Shown one piece after another: positions 1,911 through 4,922 of a stretch of 5,885 nucleotides of DNA. The stretch lies in NCBI GenBank assembly GCA_003345555.1, contig PRDJ01000046.1, positions 1 to 5,885 on the forward strand, written 5' to 3'. Origin of the DNA: Candidatus Thorarchaeota archaeon. GTDB taxonomy: Archaea > Asgardarchaeota > Thorarchaeia > Thorarchaeales > Thorarchaeaceae. Position 1 is the first letter of the stretch. Every line of letters begins with the position of its first letter. The notes under the pieces are model-generated. The model did not search any database. It was given only the letters and a program-made list of their open reading frames with translations, and was not told where the DNA came from. Position numbers and translations under genes: made by a program.

Positions 1911-2321
1911 CTACTTCAAGGGCACGTATGATGACGACTTGGTTGCACCGATGCCTGGGTTTCCATGGCTCACCTTTCTTGTTGAGGGTGCGAATTCGCC
2001 CAAGACATGTCCGATCATCTGTGGGATGATCTTGACCTTGGTGAAATCCTTCCCGTTGTGAACGGCGACTGTCAGGTCAATCATCTCTGGAAGGACGACC
2101 ATATCTCTGCAGTGAGTCTTGGTAATGATGTCTTTGCCCTTCTTCTGCGCCTTTCTGGCGTTCCTGAGCTTAGTCAGGAGTTTCTTCTGCCTCGGGGGTA
2201 GGCCTCGCTTCAGAGTTCTTCTTCTGCGACTTGGAAGAATCTCGATGAGATCATCTATGTTCATCTTAGCGAGTTCTTCGATTTCGTGCCCGCGGTAGGT
2301 TGGAACACCTTTCTGAGACAT
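1911..2321 (-). CDS. rps19: 30S ribosomal protein uS19 (archaeal S19P, homolog of eukaryotic RPS15), 136 aa
   Basis: TYRG..IEEL, LPSRRRRTLKRG, KTHCRDMVVLPEM, VHNGK, MIGHVLGEF and the C-terminal HGNPGIGATKSSSYVPLK. The start is moved from the track's TTG (2324) to ATG 2321, which follows GGTGAT-ttg. Confidence 0.97.
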   Translation of the reverse strand: MSQKGVPTYRGHEIEELAKMNIDDLIEILPSRRRRTLKRGLPPRQKKLLTKLRNARKAQKKGKDIITKTHCRDMVVLPEMIDLTVAVHNGKDFTKVKIIPQMIGHVLGEFAPSTRKVSHGNPGIGATKSSSYVPLK

Positions 2322-2324
2322 CAA

Positions 2325-2977: not shown

Positions 2978-3011
2978 AATGGTTTCAGATTGCATTGAAA
3001 CCGACGATACT

Positions 3012-3017
3012 CTTAAG
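3012..3017. promoter_or_regulatory. Palindromic TATA-like box CTTAAG in the short divergent gap between the TPR and mutase genes
   Basis: It is the only TTAA core in the gap, 25 nt before GTG 3043 and 34 nt before ATG 2977 on the opposite strand. Confidence 0.4.
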
Positions 3018-3042
3018 TCATCGCCTAGCAGAACCGCCGCAC

Positions 3043-4401
3043 GTGGTACGCATTTTCGGCACAAACGGTGTGCGCGGAATCATAAACCAAAGCATGACCG
3101 TAGACATGGCGCTAGACATCAGTAGATCTGCCGCGACAATCTTGGGAGCAGGTCATGTTGCGGTTGCCCGAGATTCTCGCATGGGTGGAGAGATGTTCTC
3201 ACGGGCCATAGTGTCCGGTCTTCTATCCACGGGCTGTTCAGTCATTGACATCGGTCTTGCTCCAACTCCAACACTCCAATTCGTCGTTCCCCGGCTCGGT
3301 TGTGTCGGGGGAATCATGATTACTGCATCACACAATCCCGGGGAATTCAGTGGCATAAAGGTCATGGGCTCTGATGGTATAGAGGTCTCTCGGGACGTGG
3401 AAGATAGCATCGAAAATTCGTATTTCGGCAGAGAATTCAGGGTCGCTCCGTGGGATAGGATCGGCACAGTCGAGAGTTATGACTCCGCACTCAGACAATT
3501 CATGGATGCCATAAAGAGTCACATTGACGTTCAGGGGGCTCAGAAGCGCAGACTGACTGTAGTTGTCGATTGTGCCAACAGTGTTGGATCGTTGGTGACT
3601 CCTCAGCTCATGAGGGAGCTGGGCTGCAAGGTATTCTCAATGAATGGACAGCTAGACGGAACTTTCCCTGGTAGGGATCCTGAACCGCTCCCGGAGAATC
3701 TCACGGAACTGAGCCGAGCTGTGGTGTCTATTGGAGCTGACATAGGAATCGCACACGATGGTGATGCCGACCGTGCCACTTTTGTCGATGAACGGGGTCA
3801 GGTCCTCTGGGGGGACCAATCCTTCGCACTAATTGCCTCGCGAGTACTTGCGAGAAAACCCGGTTCAACTCTTGTGACGCCGGTGAGCAGCGGCAGATTG
3901 ATTGAAGACGTCGCCAAACAAACAGGCGCTCAGATAGTTTGGACGGAAGTCGGTAGTGTCGTCGTTTCTCACAAGGTAAAGGAACTCGGAGCTGACCTTG
4001 GTGGAGAAGAGAATGGAGGCGTCTTCTATCCCCCACATCAGCCAGTCAGAGATGGACCAATGACTGCCGCCCAAGTTGTCGACATACTAGCTGCCGAAGG
4101 AGTAAGCTTGTCAGGCCTGATTCAGAAACTGCCAAAGTACGCAAGTGCCAAGACCAAGGTCCCAGTGCCTGCCGAAAAGAGGGATCGTATACTCGGTGTG
4201 CTGCTTCAAATGACCGAAGGCCAGAACAGGATTACACTTGACGGTATCAAGCTCATCTATGACGAAGGTTGGATTCTGATGAGACCTTCAGGAACTGAGC
4301 CTCTCTGGCGATGCTTTGCAGAGGGAAAGACTCAGAAGACGGCCGACAAGCTATCTCAGCAGGGAGTGAATTTGATTCGAGAGGCAGCAGCAAGCTCTTA
4401 G
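3043..4401 (+). CDS. Alpha-D-phosphohexomutase (archaeal PMM/PGM/GlmM type), 452 aa
   Basis: N-terminal RIFGTNGVRG places the start at GTG 3043. Catalytic phosphoserine loop TASHNP, metal loop DGDADR, sugar-binding GEENGG and phosphate-binding RPSGTEP are all present. Substrate preference (mannose, glucose or glucosamine phosphate) cannot be resolved from motifs. Confidence 0.95.
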   Translation: MVRIFGTNGVRGIINQSMTVDMALDISRSAATILGAGHVAVARDSRMGGEMFSRAIVSGLLSTGCSVIDIGLAPTPTLQFVVPRLGCVGGIMITASHNPGEFSGIKVMGSDGIEVSRDVEDSIENSYFGREFRVAPWDRIGTVESYDSALRQFMDAIKSHIDVQGAQKRRLTVVVDCANSVGSLVTPQLMRELGCKVFSMNGQLDGTFPGRDPEPLPENLTELSRAVVSIGADIGIAHDGDADRATFVDERGQVLWGDQSFALIASRVLARKPGSTLVTPVSSGRLIEDVAKQTGAQIVWTEVGSVVVSHKVKELGADLGGEENGGVFYPPHQPVRDGPMTAAQVVDILAAEGVSLSGLIQKLPKYASAKTKVPVPAEKRDRILGVLLQMTEGQNRITLDGIKLIYDEGWILMRPSGTEPLWRCFAEGKTQKTADKLSQQGVNLIREAAASS

Positions 4402-4547: not shown

Positions 4548-4922
4548 CTAACTCTTGCCTTTCTGAGGAGCCTTGCTCTCAGGCTTCTTCTCTTCTGGCT
4601 TTGCTTCGGGCTTCTTCTCTTCTTCGAAGTCGAAGTCCTCCAGCGGCTCAGGAGCTGGAGTGGTTACCATTGTCCAGCCAATCCACATTCCAATGACAGC
4701 AATCAAGACTACTGCAAGCCAGATCGGCAGCATGACTAGAAATCTCCAGTCTGGAACGAAGATATCTCGCAGAATGCCAGGTGGAAACAGTCCGTAGGCC
4801 CAACTCGTAGCGGCGGGTCCGAACCATGGGTTCTGGAGTATGACCAGACCCCAAGTGTAGTAAATCAGCACAAGAAATGCAAGAATGAGTATGAGAGCAC
4901 CAAATCCTTTCTCTTTGCCCAT
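4548..4922 (-). CDS. Small two-TM membrane protein, DPM2-like (dolichol-phosphate-mannose synthase regulatory subunit / PIG-P-like hairpin) with a charged C-terminal tail, 124 aa
   Basis: Two hydrophobic segments (GFGALILILAFLVLIYYTWGLVIL and FLVMLPIWLAVVLIAVIGMWIGWTM). The YYT motif and the P-x11-G-x-aromatic-I-x-aromatic-x-M spacing match human DPM2 as I recall it. An SD-like AGGTAGTGA lies 7 nt upstream of the ATG. The CDS is solid; the family call is a by-eye alignment. Confidence 0.75.
   Translation of the reverse strand: MGKEKGFGALILILAFLVLIYYTWGLVILQNPWFGPAATSWAYGLFPPGILRDIFVPDWRFLVMLPIWLAVVLIAVIGMWIGWTMVTTPAPEPLEDFDFEEEKKPEAKPEEKKPESKAPQKGKS
4582..4623. repeat. Exact 15-bp intragenic direct repeat encoding EEKKP twice
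   Basis: GGCTTCTTCTCTTCT at 4582-4596 and 4609-4623 (27-bp period) in the low-complexity tail of the DPM2-like gene. Confidence 0.85.

Follow-up and report, generated by a model that had tools for sequence, protein, structure and literature searches.

A Thorarchaeotal two-helix membrane protein related to DPM2 and PIG-P as a candidate subunit for holding a peripheral lipid-sugar transferase

Two essential enzymes of the endoplasmic reticulum (ER) contain small helper subunits, DPM2 and PIG-P, whose workings are poorly understood and whose defects lead to human glycosylation disorders. DPM2 is the regulatory subunit of the eukaryotic type-II dolichol-phosphate-mannose (Dol-P-Man) synthase and is also a component of the GPI-GlcNAc transferase; PIG-P is a subunit of the latter complex. 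The stretch of DNA analysed here in full (the window, 5,885 nucleotides of a Candidatus Thorarchaeota archaeon) carries a short open reading frame on its reverse strand whose product, P0001, was proposed in a preliminary description to be a DPM2-like membrane protein. The locus thus raises two questions, namely whether P0001 is truly related to DPM2 and PIG-P, and what a protein of this kind would do in an archaeon. The features of the window to which the analysis refers are as follows.

4548..4922, reverse strand: whole reading frame of P0001 with its stop codon; a two-helix membrane protein of 124 amino acids, DPM2/PIG-P-like
4899..4922, reverse strand: N-terminal motif MGKEKGFG; the family consensus is MxKDxxxG, with G8 invariant (alignments A1, A2 and A4)
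4836..4898, reverse strand: transmembrane (TM) helix 1, residues 9-29, with YYTW within; modelled by AlphaFold2 as helix 3-30 at pLDDT >90
4749..4835, reverse strand: inter-helix loop, variable, residues 30-58; the least conserved segment of P0001
4665..4748, reverse strand: TM helix 2, residues 59-86, LPIW...MWIGWTM; aligns with positions 39-71 of Pfam DPM2
4632..4664, reverse strand: post-TM2 motif TTPAPEPLEDF; the family consensus is TTPPPxPxEE; a putative cytoplasmic docking motif
4551..4631, reverse strand: C-terminal tail, disordered, acidic and Lys-rich, residues 98-124
2995..4401, forward strand: GlmM, archaeal phosphoglucosamine mutase (Pfam PGM_PMM_I-IV); a convergent neighbour, taken as context rather than as a demonstrated partner

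All of the stretches that had been singled out in P0001 were located in the translated protein. The segment LVLIYYTWGLVIL corresponds to residues 17-29, FVPDWRFLVMLPIWLAVVLIAVIGMWIGWTM to residues 55-85, and TTPAPEP to residues 87-93, after which the acidic/Lys tail follows. When counted from the TM2 proline (P66), the residues G78 (+12), W80 (+14), I81 (+15), W83 (+17) and M85 (+19) fall at the offsets that had been given for them. An AlphaFold2 model built from a 75-sequence alignment contains two long helices, residues 3-30 and 59-87, both with pLDDT >90, joined by a loop of about 28 residues at lower confidence and followed by a disordered tail; the small protein is accordingly modelled as a two-TM hairpin, and the unusually long loop is real. 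P0001 is 83% identical to a same-genus ortholog. When codons were compared with those of the same-genus ortholog from genome G083, the region of TM2 and the following motif showed 12 synonymous against 3 non-synonymous changes, a sign of purifying selection, and the loop showed 8 synonymous and 10 non-synonymous changes. The reading frame at 4548-4922 is a real, conserved gene and more than a chance occurrence.

The relatives of P0001 were then collected. A word-indexed search returned 528 homologs, the closest of which carry source names of Thorarchaeota-type Asgard archaea, and an exhaustive search yielded 136 representatives at 50% identity. The members share one layout, in which the N-terminal MxKDxxxG is followed by TM1, a variable loop, TM2, a nearly invariant WIGWTMxTTPPPxPxEE and an acidic tail; P0001 carries every one of these features, from the N-terminal motif and the two TM helices to WIGWTM-TTPxP and the acidic tail. 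Throughout the family alignments no change is seen at G8 or G82, and conservation is at least 90% for W80, I81, T88 and P89; T87, T88, P89 and P91 are invariant in A2, while P93 and the T88/P89 pair are nearly invariant across A1 and A4. The preliminary description had likened the TTP.P.P tail to that of uncharacterised small membrane proteins of archaea, and these proved to be this same family. The family is missing from a survey of conserved membrane proteins of archaea published in 2015 (PMC5898192). Searching an even sample of 81 Asgard genomes with the family profile, we found the gene in 69 of the 81 and in 34 of the 36 high-quality ones, mostly in single copy. The family motif occurs in at least 492 species genomes, comprising Thor-, Hermod-, Baldr- and Atabeyarchaeia, Bathyarchaeia, Methanocella and genomes labelled Nitrososphaerota. 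The hairpin family therefore extends beyond Asgard archaea to Bathyarchaeia, Methanocella and others. In a search for longer, fused members, only fusions with helix-hairpin-helix (HhH) or DUF4332 domains were recovered, and no fusion with a glycosyltransferase was found. P0192, P0210, P0217, P0227 and P0254 carry these domains at the C-terminus, beyond the acidic tail, which is an odd addition for a glycosylation subunit.

Kinship with DPM2 and PIG-P was assessed against the corresponding Pfam profiles, for which the gathering scores are 27.3 bits (DPM2, PF07297) and 39.3 bits (PIG-P, PF08510). P0001 itself stays below both. Against DPM2 it scored 21.1 bits (E=3.9e-4; residues 55-87 against profile positions 39-71 of 75), or 17.3 bits in a six-frame search, and against PIG-P it gave E=0.53; the proteins from all nine other sampled genomes of the same taxonomic family were likewise under both cut-offs. 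P0001 aligns with DPM2 through TM2 only, the segment to which the preliminary description had pointed, because its inter-helix loop is long (about 28 residues). When 75 family representatives were scanned singly, 42 matched PIG-P (best E=2.3e-10) and 31 matched DPM2 (best E=1.7e-8). These single-protein scans are ambiguous, because 34 of the 75 also matched a generic two-TM holin family; Phage_holin_3_6 was similar in score on many of them.

A clearer picture emerged across the 81 Asgard genomes. A small reading frame exceeded the DPM2 cut-off in 20 of them, with a best score of 54.3 bits over profile positions 2-71 of 75. PIG-P was matched at E<=0.01 in 46 of the 81, the best score being 38.6 bits, so that none reached 39.3. 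Among 14 control genomes (4 of them archaeal), none matched DPM2 or PIG-P at E<=0.01. Scored as proteins, the threshold-passing products gave 54.2, 44.8, 34.2, 32.8 and 32.2 bits against DPM2. They bear the motifs of P0001, and their DPM2 match spans the N-terminal DxxxG and both helices. The top-scoring one (L101) is related to P0001 by BLASTP at E=1e-11, and the family profile A4, in which four threshold-passing sequences are included, finds P0001 at 141.8 bits. These orthologs differ from P0001 chiefly in having a short loop, and it is for this reason that the long-loop Thorarchaeota proteins break the alignment to the DPM2 profile. The PIG-P match runs past TM2 into TTPPP (for example, P0148 residues 12-100 against profile positions 9-97 of 121), and precomputed PF07297 or PF08510 matches are present on several Thorarchaeota proteins in public collections.

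Foldseek and a profile search of the PDB gave nothing specific. Foldseek, with which the preliminary description had proposed to check its claim, returned for the P0001 fold only generic helical hairpins from the PDB, all at E>=2.5. Sequence and profile searches of the PDB retrieved no DPM2 or PIG-P chain. An embedding search of the ESM Atlas returned archaeal clusters only, with scores of 0.85-0.86; one of these carried DPM2 on 11% of its members, which serves as a lead only. The best PDB match of the family profile A1 was 6bml_A, TM1-TM2 of the human palmitoyltransferase DHHC20, at E=0.009; this match includes a W..W...T.P..P pattern after TM2 and is probably due to chance.

Judged from these profile matches, there is good support for homology between the archaeal hairpin family and DPM2/PIG-P. 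Such an evolutionary link is not new. In a published tree of PF07297, an Asgard group stands as sister, and a duplication before the last eukaryotic common ancestor gave rise to DPM2 and PIGP (2025 Nature, PMC12872463). The earlier suggestion that P0001 could represent the prokaryotic root of DPM2/PIG-P thus stands with respect to homology, by way of Asgard orthologs above the cut-off and clean controls, but the family is not specific to Asgard archaea.

The likeness to DPM2 extends to several details. Both are small two-TM hairpins with an N-terminal D/E-x3-G, an aromatic-rich TM1 and a Pro-containing TM2 that ends in G-x-[WF]-I-x-[WY]-x-M, and the short-loop Asgard orthologs match the full profile above threshold. 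P0001 differs from DPM2 in its loop of about 28 residues, its sub-threshold score, its TTPxPxP-EE motif and its long acidic tail. With PIG-P the family shares the two-TM hairpin and a conserved, presumably cytoplasmic stretch after TM2, and the PIG-P profile covers both in many members; unlike PIG-P, the family does not reach the curated cut-off.

Given this kinship, we consider it probable that P0001 is a Thorarchaeotal homolog of DPM2/PIG-P that stems from before their duplication, and that it acts as a non-catalytic hairpin holding a peripheral lipid-sugar transferase. The family would represent the state before DPM2 and PIG-P duplicated, and P0001, by analogy with both, would be a small non-catalytic membrane subunit. 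It would span the cytoplasmic membrane as a V-shaped hairpin whose two ends face the cytoplasm, where WIGWTM-TTPxPxP-EE and the acidic tail may hold or orient a peripheral glycosyltransferase. The docked enzyme would in turn load sugar onto a lipid carrier, e.g. dolichyl phosphate. Arrangements of this kind have been described for the eukaryotic proteins. Human GPI-GnT has been modelled with AlphaFold3, and there PIGP, PIGY and DPM2 each form a V of two TM helices beneath the peripheral GT4 enzyme PIGA, which PIG-P helps to orient (PMC12182360); DPM2/DPM3 with DPM1 offer a parallel for a hairpin combined with a peripheral enzyme (PMC13478489).

A stronger claim, which we put forward tentatively and regard as somewhat doubtful, is that the undivided DPM2/PIG-P ancestor was a core Asgard protein that already served a peripheral lipid-sugar transferase as a detachable membrane adaptor. 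Were this so, split multi-subunit glycolipid enzymes of the ER style would predate eukaryotes, and the original partner, be it a TM-less DPM1/AglJ-like GT2 or a UDP-GlcNAc-dependent enzyme, might be traced in living archaea. In any event the P0001 family bears on the date when split glycolipid synthases arose, and a pre-duplication archaeal relative that is core in the closest prokaryotic relatives of eukaryotes provides a simpler system in which to study hairpin subunits.

The genome from which the window derives (G000; 2.28 Mb, 93% complete, about 2400 genes) was surveyed for enzymes of the pathways concerned. Lipid-linked glycosylation exists in this organism, because STT3/AglB and a GPT/AglH-type enzyme are encoded. 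Eight GT4 enzymes and three genes of the PIG-L/LmbE family are present as well. DPM3 was not found in G000; of the GPI-GnT partners, the PIGA domain (PF08288) and PIG-C (PF06432) were searched for, likewise without a match; and no GT2 (PF00535) was detectable (best E=0.2). The multi-subunit, ER-like complex for Dol-P-Man or GPI precursors that had been envisaged for this archaeon is not borne out by such a gene set. The question of partner and function is narrowed by two sets of observations, those on the TM-less DPM1-like GT2, which does not co-occur with the hairpin gene beyond chance, and those on neighbouring genes, which are often involved in sugar activation, including UDP-GlcNAc supply.

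The first of two more specific alternatives, which we hold to be unlikely, is that P0001 anchors a TM-less DPM1-like GT2 as the membrane component of a type-II, multi-subunit synthase for Dol-P-Man or Dol-P-hexose. In Pyrococcus furiosus the type III Dol-P-Man synthase is a single chain, with a C-terminal membrane domain fused to the catalytic domain, and this membrane domain gives the anchoring that DPM2 and DPM3 give as separate subunits in eukaryotes. In Thorarchaeota, by contrast, the hairpin has a gene of its own, and TM helices are lacking in the DPM1-like enzymes of this lineage. GT2 genes were present in 20 of 20 relatives searched, at 1-10 each. The same-genus genomes G081 and G083 and other Thorarchaeota encode a GT2 of 232-243 amino acids without any TM helix; at its C-terminus it carries just a short hydrophobic helix of about 13 residues. 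The best NCBIfam matches of this enzyme are AglJ, Dol-P-hexose transferase, ArnC and PpgS, and both the NCBI and the JGI annotation call it a polyprenol monophosphomannose or dolichol-phosphate mannose synthase, which agrees with an anchoring role for the hairpin. So does its place in an operon (L108:2136-6040, forward strand; also in L110, L111 and L112), where it lies after a nucleotidyltransferase of the sugar-1-phosphate type and before a GT87-like GT-C of about 700 amino acids with 12 TM helices. This operon amounts to a complete polyprenyl-phosphate-sugar module whose synthase is without a membrane anchor.

Two further observations favour a GT2 partner. Short DPM1-like reading frames are widespread among Asgard genomes, and in genome G029 the hairpin gene is preceded at 27 bp, on the same strand, by an AglJ-like TM-less GT2 and is followed by a GT2/GT4 cluster. 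In that cluster (L141:130-11257, reverse strand; G029:C8) the order is AglJ-like GT2, DPM2-like gene, P-loop protein, GT2, GT4, nucleotidyltransferase, GT2, phosphodiesterase-family protein, polytopic membrane protein and GT4. However, the G029 adjacency is absent from two other genomes of the same family. Moreover, when the two genes were scored over the 81 Asgard genomes, 51 had both, 18 the hairpin only, 8 the GT2 only and 4 neither; the 51 genomes with both compare with about 50 expected by chance, and the hairpin-only group includes the closed genome G023 and several that are at least 95% complete. The hairpin gene and the TM-less DPM1-like GT2 hence do not co-occur beyond chance across Asgard genomes, which speaks against this alternative. 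G000 lacks not only a GT2 but, by tblastn, the entire block of radical-SAM, nucleotidyltransferase, GT2 and GT87-like genes, an absence that may reflect an assembly gap or an accessory island. The lack of a detectable DPM3 and the presence of GlmM as neighbour, which supplies GlcN-1-P and not mannose-1-P, likewise set P0001 apart from the DPM2 system. A complex prediction for the GT2 and the hairpin ortholog of G083, made with alignments and without controls, gave 0.00 against a mark of 0.32 and speaks neither for nor against binding. A soluble DPM1-like enzyme, whose absence had been named as grounds for rejecting the original proposal, accordingly exists within the genus as a TM-less candidate partner, but none was detected in G000, and across Asgard genomes it does not co-occur with the hairpin gene.

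In the second alternative, which we likewise judge to be improbable, P0001 positions a transferase dependent on UDP-GlcNAc whose acceptor is a lipid, so that its role would be nearer to that of PIG-P than to that of DPM2; the candidate enzymes are a PIG-A-like GT4, an Agl24/ALG13-14-type enzyme and an AglH-type enzyme. The PIG-P profile matches more family members than the DPM2 profile does and reaches into the TTPPP motif, although the best of them stops short of the cut-off, at 38.6 against 39.3 bits. The eight GT4 enzymes and the GPT/AglH-type enzyme of G000 provide possible partners, yet the PIGA-specific domain and PIG-C were not found there, and this distinguishes the setting in G000 from the PIG-P system. 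A gene pair of GT4 and PIG-L type in G000 was considered as a PIG-A/PIG-L analogue and ruled out. At G000:C1:45708-49599 (loci L083 and L088) this GT4 scored 372 bits as a BshA equivalog (cut-off 273.7), an enzyme of a soluble thiol pathway; its gene is divergent from that of a BshB-like deacetylase of the LmbE/PIG-L family, and a PGM-family paralog adjoins.

The second alternative draws also on the gene neighbourhood. The GlmM of the window scored 547 bits against TIGR03990 (Arch_GlmM; cut-off 439) and is an equivalog rather than a generic phosphomannomutase; only three PGM-family genes occur among the roughly 2400 genes of G000. This neighbour points to UDP-GlcNAc supply and not to GDP-mannose supply, but archaeal GlmM-type mutases may act on further sugar phosphates. 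Besides GlmM, P0001 and the uS19 protein described below, the window encodes an M24 peptidase, a flavodoxin, a PNPOx-like protein, a TPR protein and ETF-beta. Two samples of loci were examined, one of 80 loci from named genomes and a second made up of single loci from about 20 other Asgard families. In the first, 38 of 47 Thorarchaeota loci had a PGM-family gene facing the hairpin gene in convergent orientation, which may be plain inherited synteny. In 26 of 33 loci outside Thorarchaeota that have the family gene (L052-L082, Bathyarchaeia), S-adenosylhomocysteine hydrolase lay directly upstream on the same strand, at about 1.3 kb from the match. No direct link to a glycosyltransferase was found in the synteny of these 80 Thorarchaeota and Bathyarchaeia loci.

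In the second sample, sugar-activation genes recurred next to the hairpin gene in varied arrangements. A GlmM or PGM-family gene lay within 1.3 kb of it in five families (f1, f2, f3, f4 and f20), with differing orientations, and in f2 and f20 a GlmS-like SIS protein was encoded between the two. A sugar-1-phosphate nucleotidyltransferase was adjacent in f7, in f11 and in one Bathyarchaeon, the one in f11 being GlmU/GMPP-like. An NDP-sugar epimerase/dehydratase adjoined the hairpin gene in f4 and f5, and a GFO/IDH/MocA oxidoreductase, a polysaccharide deacetylase and a membrane acyltransferase did so in one family each. The recurrence of such neighbours, judged by eye and without matched random loci, supports a glycosylation-related role for the hairpin that leans to UDP-GlcNAc supply, for which GlmM in the window, the GlmS-like proteins of f2 and f20 and the GlmU/GMPP-like enzyme of f11 are the relevant cases.

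The last alternative, that the resemblance to DPM2/PIG-P is convergent and amounts to generic two-helix hydrophobicity in a protein unrelated to glycosylation, such as a membrane tether presenting an acidic cytoplasmic tail or, in the fused forms, an HhH domain, could appeal to the sub-threshold scores of P0001, the similar scores of generic two-TM Pfam families, the want of structural discrimination by Foldseek, the HhH/DUF4332 fusions and the conserved Bathyarchaeia neighbour, which is not a sugar gene, but it is less probable still, in view of the full-length DPM2 matches of up to 54 bits in other Asgard families with no control genome matching, the agreement of an independent published phylogeny (PMC12872463) and the recurrence of sugar-activation neighbours across many families. 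The reading that we prefer remains that of a pre-duplication hairpin holding a peripheral lipid-sugar transferase. As a check on the DPM2 and PIG-P profiles had been named as one by which the original proposal should be judged, it bears repeating that P0001 falls under both cut-offs by itself and that its orthologs carry the case for DPM2.

Two minor observations were made in the course of this analysis. The BshA/BshB-like pair described above represents genes of bacillithiol-type thiol biosynthesis in a Thorarchaeote. The window also contains a stand-alone uS19 gene of 137 amino acids (1911-2324, reverse strand) outside any ribosomal operon, and at six loci from five Asgard families a uS19 homolog lies about 2-3.5 kb from the DPM2-like gene.
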